This document shows, one piece after another, positions 2,356 to 10,609 of a stretch of DNA of 24,564 nt. This DNA comes from a virus. Lineage: Duplodnaviria; Heunggongvirae; Uroviricota; Caudoviricetes. Positions within the stretch are counted from its first letter, which is position 1. Every line of letters begins with the position of its first letter. The DNA is taken from IMG/VR virus record IMGVR_UViG_2563366949_000003, one strand, 5' to 3'. Both the position numbers and the translations under genes were made by a program. Under the pieces are notes generated by a model. It was given only the letters and a program-made list of their open reading frames with translations, searched no databases and had not been told where the DNA came from.

Positions 2356-3351
2356 GTGACCGTGAGAGCACTACTGACCCCTGAAATTGCCCCGCGTATG
2401 GGGATCGTATTGTTCAGGCCAGGTTCAGAGCTGATGCCCCTGTTTATGCAGGGGCGTGTCCTGCTGGAGCCTGAGCCGGAACGTTATTCATCTTTCGCCA
2501 GTGGTGCCGTTCCGGCGGCATCACAACCGCTGGCGGATGATCCTGCCGTTCGGGCCGTGTTCCGCAATGAGGCAGTGATCCGTCGTGCTGGTGGCGTGGA
2601 ATGTCTTGAAAGCTGGTTACTTCGTGAAAAGGGCTGTCAGTGGCCTCATTCCGGATGGCACAGCGAGAACATGACCACAATGCGACACGCGCCGGGCGCA
2701 ATCCGTCTGTGTTGGCACTGCGATAACCAGTTGCGTGATCAGTTCACGGAACGGCTGGAATCAATGGCAACGGATAACTGTGCCCACTGGGTGTTATCTG
2801 TCGTGCGTCGGGATCTCGGTTTTGATGACAGTCACGTAGTGACAATGCCGGAACTGTGCTGGTGGCTGGTTCGTAATGACCTGGCGGATGCCTTACCGGA
2901 AAGTGCAGCCCGTAAGGCACTGAGATTACCGAAGCCTGTTGTGCCGTCTGTCACCCGGGAAAGTGACCTTGTGCCTTCGGTTCCTGCCACCAGCATCATC
3001 CAGGATAAAGCGAAAAAGGTGCTGGCGCTGAAAGTGGATCCGGAGTCGCCGGAGTCTTTTATGTTACGCCCAAAACGTCGCCGCTGGGTTAATGAAAAGT
3101 ACACGCGCTGGGTTAAGACACAGCCGTGTGCATGTTGTGGAAAGCCCGCTGATGATCCCCACCACCTGATAGGCCACGGTCAGGGTGGAATGGGTACAAA
3201 AGCGCATGACCTTTTTGTGTTGCCTTTGTGCAGAAAGCATCACGACGAGCTGCATGCGAATACCGTGGCATTTGAAGAGAATTATGGCTCCCAGCTGGAG
3301 CTGATATTTCGTTTTATCGATCGTGCGCTGGCAATAGGCGTACTGGCGTAA
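2356..3351 (+). CDS. ydfU: DUF968 family protein (YdfU-like) with C-terminal HNH-like Cys/His motif
   Basis: GTG start one base after the upstream stop. The C-terminus CACCGKPADDPHHLIGHG...CRKHHDELH looks like a zinc-binding HNH-like motif. Its position just upstream of Q matches Qin ydfU-quuQ. Confidence 0.65.
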   Translation: MTVRALLTPEIAPRMGIVLFRPGSELMPLFMQGRVLLEPEPERYSSFASGAVPAASQPLADDPAVRAVFRNEAVIRRAGGVECLESWLLREKGCQWPHSGWHSENMTTMRHAPGAIRLCWHCDNQLRDQFTERLESMATDNCAHWVLSVVRRDLGFDDSHVVTMPELCWWLVRNDLADALPESAARKALRLPKPVVPSVTRESDLVPSVPATSIIQDKAKKVLALKVDPESPESFMLRPKRRRWVNEKYTRWVKTQPCACCGKPADDPHHLIGHGQGGMGTKAHDLFVLPLCRKHHDELHANTVAFEENYGSQLELIFRFIDRALAIGVLA

Positions 3352-3364
3352 GTGGAGAACGAGC

Positions 3365-4117
3365 ATGAACCTTGAAGCTTTACCAAAATATTACTCCCCA
3401 AAATCGCCAAAATTGAGTGATGACGCACCGGCGACAGGCTCGGGTGGTTTAACAATAACAGATGTGATGGCTGCGCAGGGGATGGTGCAGTCGAAAGCTC
3501 CGCTTGGTTTTGCCTTATTCCTGGCAAAAGTTGGTGTTCAGGATCCTCAGTTTGCGATTGAAGGTCTGCTCAATTACGCGATGGCAATGGATAATCCGAC
3601 ATTGAACAAATTGAGTGAAGAAATCCGGTTACAGATCATCCCTTACCTTGTGAATTTTGCCTTTGCTGATTATTCCAGGTCTGCGGCAAGTAAGGCTCGC
3701 TGTGAGTATTGTGCTGGTACTGGATTTCATAATGTATTGCGCGAAGTGGTGAAACACTCCAGAAGTGGGGAATCTGTTATCAAGGAAGAGTGGGTGAAGG
3801 AACTATGTCAGCATTGCCATGGTAAGGGAGAAGTCAGCACAGCGTGCAGAGGGTGTAAGGGGAAAGGTATTGTCCTGGATGAAAAAAGAACCCGGCTTCA
3901 TAGCACGCCTGTTTATAAGGTTTGTGGGCGTTGCAATGGAAACCGGTTTAGTCGTTTACCAACGACACTGGCGCGGTGTCATGTCCAGAAGCTGGTACCA
4001 GACCTGACGGATTATCAGTGGTACAAAGGATATGCAGATGTCATTGATAAACTGGTTACAAAGTGCTGGCAGGAAGAAGCATATGCTGAGGTGCAATTAA
4101 GAAAAGTGACGAGATAA
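3365..4117 (+). CDS. quuQ: Late antiterminator Q (QuuQ type, 250 aa, multiple CxxC zinc motifs)
   Basis: The 250-aa product has three CxxC pairs (CEYCAGTG, CQHCHGKGE, CRGCKGKG) and matches the Qin-type Q antiterminator by length and position upstream of the lysis genes. Confidence 0.75.
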   Translation: MNLEALPKYYSPKSPKLSDDAPATGSGGLTITDVMAAQGMVQSKAPLGFALFLAKVGVQDPQFAIEGLLNYAMAMDNPTLNKLSEEIRLQIIPYLVNFAFADYSRSAASKARCEYCAGTGFHNVLREVVKHSRSGESVIKEEWVKELCQHCHGKGEVSTACRGCKGKGIVLDEKRTRLHSTPVYKVCGRCNGNRFSRLPTTLARCHVQKLVPDLTDYQWYKGYADVIDKLVTKCWQEEAYAEVQLRKVTR

Positions 4118-4367
4118 ATGATTTTCACCGAACGATGGCGACATAACGATTGTATTTTCTAAGGAAACGTGCAAAGAGTTTTCCAATGATGAGCCTTATA
4201 TGCATACCGGTGGAAAATATCAATAAGCCGCGCAGAGTGGTTTTTTTGTGGACATAAACTTTGTGCAGAACGGTAACCATTATGGTTGCCGTGAATGCAG
4301 TTTTTTTACATTGCTGGCTTTTTTAGATTTGTGTTAGTTCTTGATATTAACAAGAAGGGGAAAAGAC

Positions 4368-4469
4368 ATGCTAAAACGGCAGGATATGAAGGAAACGGTT
4401 ATGCGTGAATGTTCCAGTGTGATTAACCATATCATCTGGAGAAGCCATCCTGATGCAGGGAAGAGGTAA
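4368..4469 (+). CDS. Small ORF (33 aa), unknown
   Basis: A GGGGA RBS lies 8-9 nt upstream of ATG 4368; product MLKRQDMKETVMRECSSVINHIIWRSHPDAGKR. It is below the ORF-track length cutoff and has no recognised family. Confidence 0.2.
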   Translation: MLKRQDMKETVMRECSSVINHIIWRSHPDAGKR

Positions 4470-4832
4470 CAGTAACGCGCATCAATCAGGCTGCAAATAA
4501 ATGGCTTACGCCGGAAATCTGGCTATCGATGTATTACCGGTTTGTTACCCATGAAGAAAATTAAGGTGATAACGAAACTGATTTTATAGGTGTCTTGTCA
4601 GAGTGTTGCGATGAAACTTGTGTTGGCAGTGCAGGGAAAACAGTAGGATGAAAATTATAAATTGCTTTAAATTAGCTTGATTTTCCTCATGTTATGAGAT
4701 ATTTGTCTTATATTGCTGGTTAATTATGAAAATTTTTGTAAATCTACAGCAATAAAATCCATATTAATTAAAGCACTAGATGCGTTTCTGATTTGTGCAT
4801 GAAACATACATATCATAATGATTAATTGCATC

Positions 4833-4838
4833 TATAAT
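4833..4838 (+). promoter_or_regulatory. Candidate -10 hexamer TATAAT upstream of small-ORF pair
   Basis: A perfect TATAAT sits 40 nt upstream of ATG 4879 in a very AT-rich stretch. No convincing -35 was found. Confidence 0.2.
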
Positions 4839-4878
4839 TACAGATACAGCATTGTGCTGTTAAAAAACTGGAGTCCCC

Positions 4879-4986
4879 ATGAATACATTATATGTAAGTG
4901 ATTCAAATGAAAAATCTCATGACAGGAATAAAAACAATGAGGATAGTAAGGGTAAGGATAATAAAAAAGACAACCGGAAAGAGTAA
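4879..4986 (+). CDS. Small highly charged ORF (35 aa), unknown
   Basis: GGAG lies 8 nt upstream of ATG 4879; product MNTLYVSDSNEKSHDRNKNNEDSKGKDNKKDNRKE is Lys/Asp/Asn-rich and hydrophilic. Confidence 0.25.
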   Translation: MNTLYVSDSNEKSHDRNKNNEDSKGKDNKKDNRKE

Positions 4987-5021
4987 ATAATCTTTCCTGC
5001 ATAAAAATACTAGGGTGGAAT

Positions 5022-5141
5022 ATGTCAGAACATCCAGATTTTGATGACCGTAAGCCTGATGATGAGCCCGTTGAGCGTCCTGATGAGGGGCAACCATTGA
5101 ACCCTTTTTCACCGGATGATAAAAGAGATCCTATTATTTAG
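5022..5141 (+). CDS. Small acidic proline-rich ORF (39 aa), unknown
   Basis: GGTGG lies 5 nt upstream of ATG 5022; product MSEHPDFDDRKPDDEPVERPDEGQPLNPFSPDDKRDPII. A strong intrinsic terminator follows about 50 nt downstream. Confidence 0.3.
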   Translation: MSEHPDFDDRKPDDEPVERPDEGQPLNPFSPDDKRDPII

Positions 5142-5192
5142 ATATAGCAGAATATAGCCGTTTAAAGTAGGTTGTGTTTTGTTGCTATCCTT

Positions 5193-5221
5193 AAACCACC
5201 TCCACAGGAGGTGGTTTTTTA
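5193..5221 (+). terminator. Rho-independent terminator (11-bp stem AAACCACCTCC / GGAGGTGGTTT, U-tract)
   Basis: Perfect inverted repeat with a 4-nt loop, followed by TTTTTT. It lies between the plus-strand small ORFs and the convergent minus-strand ORF at 5278-5463. Confidence 0.6.
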
Positions 5222-5277
5222 CTAATGGAACATTAATTGGCAGATGTGATTGTGTACGACTTATGGGAGGCTTAAGA

Positions 5278-5463
5278 TTATTTTCTGCCAATAATAAAAC
5301 CAAGCGTTAACCCTATGCTTAGAGCAACCACCACGCTAGTCAGTGGATAATTTCTAAATTTATCTTTAACGTTTTCTTTGCCTCCCTGCAAAGCATCGTC
5401 AGCACATGATGCATATTTTTTGACAGTATTAACTATTTCGTTTTCAGATTGATTTGAAGTCAT
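5278..5463 (-). CDS. DUF883 (ElaB/YqjD/YgaM-like) C-tail-anchored small membrane protein
   Basis: The C-terminus NYPLTSVVVALSIGLTLGFIIGRK matches the ElaB-family tail anchor (hydrophobic helix ending GRK/GRR). The ATG at 5461-5463 gives 61 aa; a TTG at 5562 would give 94 aa, closer to typical family length. Confidence 0.45.
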   Translation of the reverse strand: MTSNQSENEIVNTVKKYASCADDALQGGKENVKDKFRNYPLTSVVVALSIGLTLGFIIGRK

Positions 5464-5916
5464 GTTTGAAGTCCTGATGTTAAGTGGCTTTTTAATTATA
5501 GCAGATATGCTTTCAATGATAGGGCGGAGAGTTGTTATTGAGGTGATACTATGGCCACTCAATCAACATTACATAAAATGACGTTTACTCCTGTTTGGCA
5601 CAGTAGCAGAATTTTGCTTCTGCTACTGAAGTCGCTTTAGCACTAGAATATGCAGATGGATAAAGCAGTTCAGCGTATGTACTGCGTCATGCATATCGGT
5701 CTTGCAGATATGACGAGAAGGGGAGACAAGGTGTGTGTAATGTAGAAGTCTTTAAAGTGCTGTCTGGGATAACTCTATACTGAAGTGCAATTGATAAAAG
5801 TAACACGATAAAGGTTTTTCAATGAAGATGGTAACGTGATGCTTGCATTTTTCAAAAAATATGGATAAAATTTTTTCAACGATGGGCTTTGTATACCCGA
5901 CGTTAAGAAAAAGTAG

Positions 5917-5941
5917 AAAACCCGCTGATGAGCGGGTTTTG
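5917..5941. terminator. Bidirectional hairpin terminator (AAAACCCGCT-GATG-AGCGGGTTTT)
   Basis: The stem is flanked by an A-run on one side and a T-run on the other, so it could terminate either strand. It lies about 290 nt downstream of cspF on the minus strand. Confidence 0.45.
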
Positions 5942-6232
5942 TGCTTTAAATGGGGCAATGGTAATGTTGAATCTCATCCCGGGACTCATGTCTGTTAACT
6001 TATTATTTAGCTGGTGACTTGGTTATTTGCCTGATGTTTAAAATGTTTTCTTCCAGTACAATGTCCCTAAACACAATGAGTCTGCTTATTATATTATTAG
6101 CAGAGCTATTACGGCCAAAGTACAGCATAAGCTTTTAAAGCCAGTCAACCAGTCATCAAGACAGACGGGGTTATTCATAAAAACTCTCCATGTGTGATCC
6201 GATGGGGCCTGAAATTAAAGCTTTAATATAGC

Positions 6233-6445: not shown

Positions 6446-6745
6446 AAAAATTCCTTAATACTGATAACTTGGCGCACTATACACACTTTCCTGAAGAAAG
6501 CTATAGTTTTTTGATGGGGTTGAAGATGGCTGGATGTCTAAAATAAACATTGCTTCATATGTTCAACTATGCGTTAATGATTGCGTCGGTTTGAAGAACA
6601 GACGATATACGAAGTAGTTTACTAAAGCAGTTCTCATTTCAGGTGTTATTCACTTATTCCTTCTTTGAGTCTCTCCAATTAAGTACGAAGTCGTTTCTGT
6701 TATACAAGCCATTTATGCCGAAAGGCTCAAGTTAAGGAATGTAGA

Positions 6746-6961
6746 ATGTCAAATAAAATGACTGGTTTAGTAAAATGGTTTAACGCTGATAAAGGTTTTG
6801 GCTTTATTTCTCCTGTTGATGGTAGTAAAGATGTGTTTGTGCATTTTTCTGCGATTCAGAATGATAATTTTCGAACCTTATTTGAAGGTCAAAAGGTTAC
6901 CTTCTCTGTAGAGAGTGGTGCTAAAGGTCCTGCAGCAGCAAATGTCATAATTACTGATTAA
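6746..6961 (+). CDS. cspB: Cold-shock protein CspB
   Basis: The 71-aa product [51 protein letters not shown]... carries the RNP1/RNP2 motifs and is near-identical to E. coli CspB. A long upstream leader is typical of csp genes. Confidence 0.9.
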
Positions 6962-7242
6962 AATTAATAGTTTGTCTGTATACGATAACGAAGAAGGCTG
7001 ATGCCTGAGTGGAGATACAGACAGAGTGGTGAATATTGGATCTCTTTAATAAATAGTAAGGAGATCCAATACATGAAACAATGGCCAGCATATTTGGCAA
7101 TAACTTAATCAGGAAAAGTATGCTAACCATTGTGGTGAAGTGCAGGTTTGCTGCATGAATAGTTTTACAGCAGAAGCTAACTGCTAGCATAGCAAAACAA
7201 AGTGCGTAAGTGGATGACTCCCACAAAAAGCACCACAATATT

Positions 7243-9834: not shown

Positions 9835-10085
9835 ATTAATATTAAATCGGATTATTTTTAGCGCTGAATGTGAAATTTAAATAAAAAGGACTCTTCCATG
9901 AGTCAAAATCCTTGAAATCTTAAGGGTAAGATAAAAGGTCATTAGACAGAATGACACGTTTTATTAATAAATAAAGCTATTGTTTCATTCGTGTGTTTTT
10001 CTTTACAAAAGTAATCCTTGCTATGGTTGGTTAATCATGCGTTAATGGTGTTCTGGTTTGTTACAAAATTATCTGAAGCAGTCAT

Positions 10086-10094
10086 TGTTATAAT
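10086..10094 (+). promoter_or_regulatory. Candidate extended -10 promoter element (TGTTATAAT) for cspI
   Basis: A perfect TGnTATAAT lies about 105 nt upstream of the cspI ATG, consistent with the long leaders of csp genes. It has not been tested. Confidence 0.3.
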
Positions 10095-10197
10095 TTTATT
10101 ATTTGTACCTCTTGAGATTTCCTTGTTGGTTTTTCTCTCTGATATTTTTTTTCGGACCATTCTGCCCAAGGGCTAACTTCTTCAAAAGGTAATAATG

Positions 10198-10410
10198 ATG
10201 TCTAACAAAATGACTGGTTTAGTGAAATGGTTTAACCCTGAAAAAGGTTTTGGTTTCATCACGCCGAAAGATGGTAGCAAAGATGTGTTTGTCCATTTCT
10301 CAGCTATTCAGAGCAACGATTTCAAAACGTTAACTGAGAATCAGGAAGTCGAATTTGGTATTGAGAACGGACCTAAAGGCCCCGCGGCTGTTCATGTTGT
10401 GGCACTTTGA
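10198..10410 (+). CDS. cspI: Cold-shock protein CspI
   Basis: The 70-aa product [70 protein letters not shown] matches CspI as recalled. Confidence 0.9.
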
Positions 10411-10609
10411 GGTAGAAAATATTACAAACCATATTCACTTTAGATGCCCGTGTTGCCATGGTTCTCAGTATAGAACATCATCTTTTGATGTTTCTGACAG
10501 GAATCCTTTCGGGGCAAAATGTATCTTTTGTAAATCAATGATGATTACATTTGATAATATTTCACAATACTTAAATGTTAGCCGTCTGTCGTTAGATTTA
10601 AGAAAGTGA
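10394..10609 (+). CDS. Candidate small zinc-ribbon ORF (CPCCHG...CIFC) downstream of cspI
   Basis: An in-frame ATG at 10394 overlaps the cspI 3' end, and the stop lies 6 nt before the terminator at 10615. The RBS is weak and the start uncertain; the track's TTG start is at 10355. Confidence 0.3.

Follow-up and report, generated by a model that had tools for sequence, protein, structure and literature searches.

The stretch analysed here (hereafter the window; 24,564 nucleotides of the IMG/VR virus record IMGVR_UViG_2563366949_000003, Caudoviricetes) is a Qin-like lambdoid prophage of Escherichia coli, and the element in question is a compact unit at positions 4833-5221 on its + strand, in which a TATAAT hexamer, two tandem small open reading frames (ORF1 and ORF2) and an intrinsic terminator follow one another. 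Judging from the sequence, and with slightly less than even confidence, we interpret this unit as a self-contained moron-type cassette of two genes for small proteins, located in a horizontally exchanged island of the (pro)phage. Morons of lambdoid phages are independent transcription units between conserved phage genes, such as bor and lom of phage lambda and the morons of HK97. The observations on which the interpretation builds are the anatomy of the unit, a statistical excess of coding and Shine-Dalgarno (SD) signals, the structure of the surrounding island and its narrow distribution.

The consensus -10 hexamer TATAAT (4833-4838, + strand) lies 41 nt before ORF1 and would place the start of transcription at approximately 4845-4846. 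It is accompanied by a weak -35 candidate, ATATCA (4810-4815, + strand), which matches the consensus at three of six positions with a spacer of 17 nt and carries a T-to-C single-nucleotide polymorphism (SNP) at 4813 in divergent haplotypes. This putative promoter is the best + strand candidate between 4150 and 4880, a search space covering 730 nt upstream. At the opposite end of the unit, an intrinsic terminator was identified at 5193-5221 (+ strand), whose arms (5193-5203 and 5207-5217) form 11 perfect pairs around an ACA loop. Both the hexamer and the perfect 11-bp stem had been called in the original prediction, and both were confirmed, the latter with a folding energy of -17.3 kcal/mol (z = -4.7) that none of 200 shuffled sequences reached. 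An automated terminator scan omitted this hairpin, as its T-count begins after the longest stem and three of the six T at 5215-5220 lie within the stem; when the 8-bp G+C core (CCACCTCC/GGAGGTGG) is taken as the stem instead, six T follow directly. The orientation of the terminator favours the + strand, where six U are available versus UUU alone on the - strand, and in silico the unit possesses a factor-independent terminator of its own, as morons do. The hairpin is preceded by a 3' untranslated stretch (5142-5192, + strand) with a U-rich tract, GUUGUGUUUUGUUGCU, just 5' of the stem, and it is also positioned to terminate a convergent gene for a 61-aa protein.

Together with its immediate flanks (5177-5223), the hairpin recurs at 84-92% identity over approximately 38-47 nt in E. 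coli, Salmonella and Escherichia marmotae plasmids, and it is also found behind a DNA methylase gene in a region resembling an integrative and conjugative element on 15 E. coli chromosomes. This recurrence after unrelated genes fits a generic terminator module. That the matches elsewhere represent a diverged homologue of the whole unit was rejected, as they follow the unrelated DNA methylase gene.

ORF1 (35 aa, MNTLYVSDSNEKSHDRNKNNEDSKGKDNKKDNRKE) extends from an ATG at 4879 to a stop at 4986 (+ strand), encodes a Lys/Asn/Asp-rich peptide and is preceded by the SD sequence GGAG (4870-4873, + strand), located 5 nt before the ATG and with a predicted anti-SD duplex of -5.9 kcal/mol. ORF2 (39 aa, MSEHPDFDDRKPDDEPVERPDEGQPLNPFSPDDKRDPII) extends from an ATG at 5022 to a stop at 5141 (+ strand), encodes an acidic peptide with four P-D-D/E repeats and follows the SD-like sequence GGGTGGA (5013-5019, + strand; anti-SD duplex -6.7 kcal/mol). 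The two tandem SD-led frames of 35 and 39 codons are present as originally described, and the extreme hydrophilicity ascribed to their products, one Lys/Asp/Asn-rich and the other Asp/Glu/Pro-rich, is borne out by the computed grand averages of hydropathy (GRAVY) of -2.51 for ORF1 (isoelectric point 8.1; nine Lys and Arg, eight Asp and Glu and seven Asn residues) and -1.73 for ORF2 (isoelectric point 4.1; 13 Asp and Glu and eight Pro residues; net charge approximately -8). Single-sequence AlphaFold2 models consist of coil throughout for ORF1 (predicted TM-score 0.16) and essentially all coil, save for one helical turn of three residues, for ORF2 (predicted TM-score 0.13), which is compatible with intrinsic disorder of both peptides, a modelled outcome that is weak evidence when taken alone. 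The proline-containing repeat of ORF2 (5034-5119) comprises four copies of CCNGATGA (Pro-Asp-Asp/Glu), and because three different proline codons are in use, it appears to be a repeat at the level of the peptide rather than the DNA.

Dinucleotide shuffles of 4839-5192 (n = 3000) contained two ATG-initiated ORFs of at least 35 codons in 2.1% of cases and two ORFs both with an anti-SD pairing of -5.5 kcal/mol or below in 0 of 3000, frequencies that are to be read with the caveat that the unit was singled out after the fact. A codon log-odds model, for which the 15 long ORFs of the window served as training set, gave scores of 0.479 for ORF1 and 0.258 for ORF2, compared with 0.28 +/- 0.15 for reference chunks in the true frame and -0.21 +/- 0.15 for small off-frame ORFs. 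For each of the two, the in-frame score tops those of the other five frames and exceeds those of the sequence's own shuffles in 99.6% (ORF1) and 98.5% (ORF2) of cases. The island contains 22 ORFs of 25 codons or more; ORF1 has the highest codon score of these and ORF2 the second highest, and both are among the four with the strongest anti-SD duplexes. Both ORFs thus combine an open frame, an ATG, a well-spaced SD sequence and frame-specific codon usage, as expected of translated genes for small proteins, and these features of the sequence itself make real translation units more likely than incidental ORFs. Both ORFs also appear as gene-caller predictions in some assemblies and in the records of two phages.

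The unit is located in an AT-rich island of 1694 bp (4118-5811) between the gene for the Q-type antiterminator and a K-12-like late promoter. The Qin prophage of E. coli K-12 lacks this island, and its Q stop codon is followed directly by a sequence resembling the late promoter pR', so that the window contains 1694 additional bases at this position, an insertion between adjacent genes as is typical of morons. The GC content of the island is 0.275-0.42, versus 0.44-0.55 across the DUF968 and Q genes (3000-4099), and the segment around the unit (4600-5300; GC 0.275-0.40) likewise has the distinct base composition of a moron. The + strand is purine-rich and markedly A-rich around the unit, with an AT skew of +0.26 to +0.29. 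In all carriers examined, the unit was found together with the island and between the same flanks.

Island carriers comprise 40 of 5426 complete E. coli genomes, in which the island occurs once per genome at 99.3-100% identity, as well as the phages PhiR63_1 and HannyBb and 16 IMG/VR contigs. A scan of metagenomes anchored on the 61-aa neighbour added four loci or contigs at approximately 99.5-99.9% identity, and the copies in E. marmotae are 99.6% identical and hence not diverged. Shiga-toxin-type strains of O121, O103 and O84 are among those whose prophages carry the island. The block at approximately 4120-5868 diverges by 0.3-2.6% in the carriers that differ most (loci L017 and L020), compared with 7-8% for the Q gene, the 3' part of the late promoter module downstream of the island and cspF. 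This pattern of sequence divergence indicates that the island is a cassette that was exchanged recently between diverged Qin-like phages and that has also reached E. marmotae. The recent exchange in turn renders the near-invariance of the island uninformative with regard to constraint on the ORFs.

Searches of Pfam, NCBIfam, PHROGs and PADLOC yielded no family match for ORF1 or ORF2, and no match to either peptide was identified among PDB sequences. Word-index searches of 5.8 billion clustered proteins recovered near-identical copies of ORF1 and ORF2 only; as these searches require at least 40 aa, each query was lengthened by 3-5 in-frame residues from upstream of its start. A complete HMMER search with ORF2, covering 1.84 billion representatives, likewise gave near-identical copies only. 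Six-frame tblastn against 50,697 phage genomes detected only the two carrier phages, blastn at a sensitivity of 65-70% against E. coli genomes, phages and plasmids returned only the 40 carrier genomes, the two phages and the terminator hairpin, and two scans of GTDB species representatives, one of them covering 185,579 genomes, found nothing for the peptides. Diverged relatives of the ORFs were thus absent from every collection searched, and a full-text literature search for the peptide sequences and the carrier phages retrieved nothing relevant. The neighbours of the unit in the island are fragments of larger genes; a similar origin of the unit from a known gene was rejected, as no DNA or protein match was obtained in any frame or collection searched.

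Several of these features are shared with the lambdoid morons: the unit is compact, has a putative -10 element and an intrinsic terminator of its own and a G+C content below that of its neighbours, is situated at a module joint just behind Q, is absent from the otherwise homologous Qin prophage of K-12 and has been exchanged as part of a block among diverged phages. Whereas these morons encode one ordinary protein, for which a phenotype in the lysogen is known, the unit encodes two orphan peptides of at most 39 aa, and its promoter is putative. The moron-like entity may also be the whole 1.7-kb island including the 61-aa gene rather than the unit alone. A second point of comparison is provided by the small proteins of Qin, YnfU, YnfS and YnfQ/YmcF, known from ribosome profiling and tagging, which originate from the same type of prophage and the same neighbourhood and belong to the same size class. 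YnfU and YnfS have been detected experimentally in this region of the K-12 prophage (bioRxiv 10.1101/511675). Both are encoded nearby and show that small ORFs of this kind in the region can be truly translated, but ORF1 and ORF2 share no sequence similarity with these proteins (no NCBIfam or Pfam match) and are lacking in K-12.

Promoter activity, translation and any function of the unit are what we infer from this arrangement. A sigma-70 promoter with a perfect -10 element (4833-4838) and a weak -35 element would initiate an RNA of approximately 375 nt near 4845, on which ribosomes would load separately at the two SD sites to produce the 35-aa Lys/Asn/Asp-rich and the 39-aa acidic, proline-rich peptide. 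This RNA would end at the hairpin and U-run (5193-5221), which would in addition insulate it from the 61-aa gene converging on it. In the lytic phase, polymerases reading through from pR, or from the pR'-like copy immediately behind Q, could raise expression. Most characterized small proteins of bacteria act by binding a larger partner. Neither of the two peptides has relatives, and both are predicted to lack a fold. If functional, they would most likely bind a larger partner of the host or the phage, with ORF2 potentially serving as a polyanionic ligand for a basic surface.

A number of observations weigh against the cassette interpretation. The TATAAT hexamer occurs at chance rate in the window (eight copies versus 9.0 expected) and its -35 partner is weak, the training set of the codon model is small (15 ORFs), and the purine-rich composition raises codon scores. 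The island around the unit consists in part of gene remnants. In the complete genomes examined, that is, among the matches listed for the 411-nt unit and in two annotation tables, both ORFs are unannotated by NCBI RefSeq. Variation was assessed in 28 copies representing 16 haplotypes, among which only three SNPs fall within the ORFs; all of these are non-synonymous (S13T, S23G and D36E) and give no sign of purifying selection, although they are too few to test for selection. SNP density in the unit is 1.3% (five sites in 389 bases) versus 2.9% in non-coding flanks, a difference that is not significant (p = 0.09), and the whole island is as invariant as the unit. Protein clusters furthermore contain scattered single-residue variants, some of them non-conservative, for example P28H on 92 contigs. 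One complete genome (strain 04-00955) has a 2-nt deletion in ORF1, with two homopolymer deletions nearby in the same assembly, and two database variants contain homopolymer frameshifts, one an A6-to-A5 change near the end of ORF1 and the other in an A-run near the end of ORF2. The original prediction had named disruption of the ORFs in close homologues as a sign against it, and the outcome is mixed: the peptides are intact on more than 1000 contigs, and the disrupted variants are rare (three seen) and may be assembly errors, but their existence means that the ORFs do not come through this comparison cleanly. The A6G run in ORF1 (4961-4967) is an indel hot spot, at which the A6-to-A5 change fuses an out-of-frame ORF to ORF2 to give the NCBI protein P0001 of 73 aa. 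In the +2 frame, the same run reads as a slippery heptamer, A-AAA-AAG, with a hairpin 9 nt downstream, which is probably a coincidence.

The strongest competing explanation, which we consider somewhat unlikely, is that the ORFs are leftovers or by-products without function in an island that was assembled by recombination and is decaying, and that the hairpin is the sole working part, ending transcription of the 61-aa gene and blocking stray rightward transcription before the late promoter. Such decay would be in keeping with the fragments of ren and of an antirepressor gene and the duplicated, decayed 3' end of Q in the island, with the frameshift variants and with the fact that all three SNPs within the ORFs alter the peptide (3/3). 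The orphan status of both ORFs in searches of 1.84 and 5.8 billion proteins, their omission from the RefSeq annotations examined and the recurrence of the hairpin as a generic module after unrelated genes point in the same direction. Two adjacent ORFs with ATG starts, well-spaced SD sequences and the best codon scores of the island are, however, not expected by chance, and none of the 3000 shuffles reproduced a pair of SD-led ORFs. In addition, the U-run of the hairpin favours termination on the + strand, the - strand offering UUU only, and the unit, unlike the neighbouring fragments, matches no E. coli gene at a DNA identity of at least 65-70%.

An improbable alternative is that the unit, or a 3' fragment of it comprising the U-rich tract and the terminator, is a trans-acting small RNA (sRNA) of the Hfq type or a dual-function RNA in which the ORFs are secondary. 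In pathogenic E. coli, the prophage DNA that follows Q is known to give rise to sRNAs, among them StxS and the anti-sRNAs AsxR and AgvB. The unit is discrete and short and has a strong terminator, and the U-rich, single-stranded tract just upstream of the hairpin, together with the U6 tail after it, is the sole feature of the sequence that could favour an Hfq-type sRNA derived from the 3' untranslated region. The fold of the whole unit has a z-score of -3.2, but this value includes the terminator hairpin and may owe much to it (-17.3 kcal/mol and z = -4.7 alone). Two further predicted hairpins on the + strand, one of 6 bp (ACAGCA/UGCUGU, 4846-4860) at the 5' end of the presumed transcript and one of 7 bp (4976-4997) that contains the ORF1 stop in its loop and reaches into the 35-nt spacer before ORF2, are not significant relative to shuffles, the fragments around them folding at -7.5 kcal/mol in total (4845-4885; z = -1.2) and -11.6 kcal/mol in total (4970-5030; z = -1.7). 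Searches with Rfam 15 returned no family match within the unit (best E-values of 1.4 to 4.6, far below gathering scores) or within 4100-6000 (best E-value 0.15, all matches far below threshold), and the five SNP sites are too few for an analysis of covariation. A regulatory RNA would moreover leave the frame-specific coding signals without explanation, and the earlier suggestion of a structured non-coding RNA with incidental ORFs found no positive support. A permissive Rfam scan also produced a spurious match to the C/D-box snoRNA sR41 (5034-5085) inside ORF2, which is probably caused by the CUGAUGA strings of the ORF2 repeats.

It is highly implausible that the real gene is instead a 69-aa ORF on the - strand (5112 to 4903) encoding a small membrane or toxin-like peptide, to which the + strand RNA would be antisense. 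The C-terminal half of its product (approximately residues 31-69, ...TLVFLCRKDYLLFPVVFFIILTLTILIVFIPVMRFFI) is strongly hydrophobic, but this is the mirror image expected of a Lys/Asn/Asp-rich sense strand. The AT-rich hexamer of the putative promoter can also be read on the - strand (TTAACA-18-AATTAT with a TG extension, 4863-4834) and scores as a promoter there; this site, however, points away from the 69-aa ORF, which lies downstream of the hairpin on the - strand and is without a promoter of its own. The ORF begins with GTG, has no usable SD sequence (-3.6 kcal/mol) and has a codon score of -0.03. A type I toxin-antitoxin arrangement with a toxin-like gene on the - strand was rejected for the same combination of start codon, weak SD, codon score and lack of a promoter.

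The moron-type cassette was additionally compared with other known systems of phages and of E. coli. Lambdoid phages produce short late leader transcripts between pR' and tR', including the 6S RNA of lambda and the StxS sRNA of Stx phages. Like these leaders, the unit is located downstream of Q on the strand of the late genes and consists of a putative promoter soon followed by a strong terminator; unlike them, it contains SD-led ORFs. It shares no sequence with the pR'/tR'-type modules of this phage and is five to six times longer than the leaders of roughly 70 nt in these modules. As those modules map to 4118-4243 and 5812-5940, identity of the unit with a pR'-6S/tR' late leader was rejected.

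By definition, hydrophilins combine a glycine content of more than 6% with high hydrophilicity; YciG, RMF and Sra are examples of such proteins and of small hydrophilic proteins of the stress response in E. coli. Both peptides resemble these proteins in being very small, extremely hydrophilic, charged and predicted to be unstructured, and cold-shock genes are located nearby. In contrast to hydrophilins, their glycine contents are only 2.9% (1/35, ORF1) and 2.6% (1/39, ORF2), and they share no sequence similarity with any family. The proposal that the unit encodes small stress proteins is thus not supported by any family, structure or homologue match, the sole hint of a stress-related role being the cold-shock genes and the DUF883-like gene in the neighbourhood. 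Phages also encode acidic protein mimics of nucleic acids, such as Ocr, ArdA and Arn, with which ORF2 shares its phage origin and its strongly acidic character (13 Asp and Glu among 39 residues). Unlike these mimics, ORF2 is much shorter, consists of proline to one-fifth and is predicted to be disordered rather than to form a folded, DNA-shaped surface, and it showed no similarity to any solved structure (PDB sequences) or defence-related model (PADLOC).

The unit is a genuine and well-formed feature of the sequence, and its likeliest reading is an ordinary moron of the phage with two orphan mini-ORFs. A more far-reaching proposal, to which we assign a low probability, is that ORF1 and ORF2 are expressed as disordered micro-proteins that are restricted to this lineage, were possibly born de novo and are of advantage to the phage or the lysogen. 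If so, ORF2, a polyanionic, proline-rich peptide that has a DFDD motif besides its four P-D-D/E repeats and whose acidic tail has a hydrophobic end, could occupy a basic surface of a host protein involved in nucleic acid handling or defence, and a benefit of this kind would explain the recent sweep of the island through Qin-like phages with 7-8% diverged backbones and into E. marmotae. Orphan small proteins form a poorly charted layer of prophages with potential relevance for lysogenic conversion, anti-defence and the control of host factors, and the unit, with its clear candidate promoter, SD sites and terminator, represents a compact test case. If translated, it would add two phage-borne micro-proteins without detectable relatives, encoded on a cassette spreading among E. 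coli prophages; if not expressed, it would be an example of a recombination scar that closely mimics a cassette of small ORFs. In both cases, the picture of lambdoid phages would hardly change.

Besides the unit, the island carries duplicated sequence, gene fragments and the convergent neighbour of the unit. This neighbour, a 61-aa gene on the - strand (5278-5463; phrog_11629), encodes a protein with a weak match to the C-terminal glycine zipper of DUF883 and a hydrophobic C-terminus resembling a tail anchor. It is equipped with an extended -10 element, TGCTATAAT (5503 to 5495, - strand), and an AGGA SD sequence, converges on the same hairpin as the unit and is the only gene of the island annotated in RefSeq. 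Further segments include a ren fragment (4518-4630) with approximately 74% identity to the 3' part of ren, an antirepressor fragment (5539-5733) with approximately 79% identity to the 5' end of an antirepressor gene with a P22AR C-terminal domain, and a stretch at 4231-4396 that is approximately 75% identical to the intergenic and 5' region adjoining a DNA methyltransferase gene in other E. coli. Three IMG/VR copies (L017-L019) lack 32 nt at 4489-4520, a deletion polymorphism that points to non-coding sequence in this part of the island.

The boundaries of the island are marked by two homologous modules (4060-4250 and 5754-5950), 1694 bp apart, each consisting of the 3' end of Q, a pR'-like promoter and a tR'-like hairpin. 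They share a direct repeat of 73 nt that covers the Q 3' end and pR'-like sequence (4060-4132 and 5754-5826). In K-12 Qin, the Q stop codon is followed by a promoter-like sequence, TTGCAT-N17-TAAAAT, and then a strong hairpin, which would correspond to the late promoter pR' and the terminator tR'. The downstream module of the window (copy B, approximately 5812-5940) is 97% identical to that of K-12, retains TTGCAT-N17-TAAAAT and forms a hairpin of -23.9 kcal/mol; just 5' of it, the final 58 bases of a Q gene are preserved in decayed form. The module copy directly behind the intact Q gene (4118-4243) is diverged and has a degenerate -10 element and a weak hairpin of -8.5 kcal/mol.

Upstream of the island, a mosaic segment between the Q gene and the K-12-like late promoter, the + strand encodes a DUF968 protein and a Q-type antiterminator of the ydfT/quuQ type (3365-4117), whose product shares 93% identity with QuuQ of K-12. 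Downstream, the gene order is cspF (- strand), cspB (+ strand), ynfU, the holin and lysis genes, cspI and then the packaging and head genes. Between copy B and cspF, a 29-aa ORF on the - strand (6089-6178) was taken as the counterpart of YnfS (PF23697) by position and length, the Pfam match itself stemming from the corresponding 29-aa gene at a relative locus (L027). The only Rfam matches at gathering level in the window are two cspA thermoregulators (6585-7024 and 10040-10456), which are full-length (159 and 110 bits) and cover cspB and cspI of the prophage, in each case the coding region together with the 5' leader.

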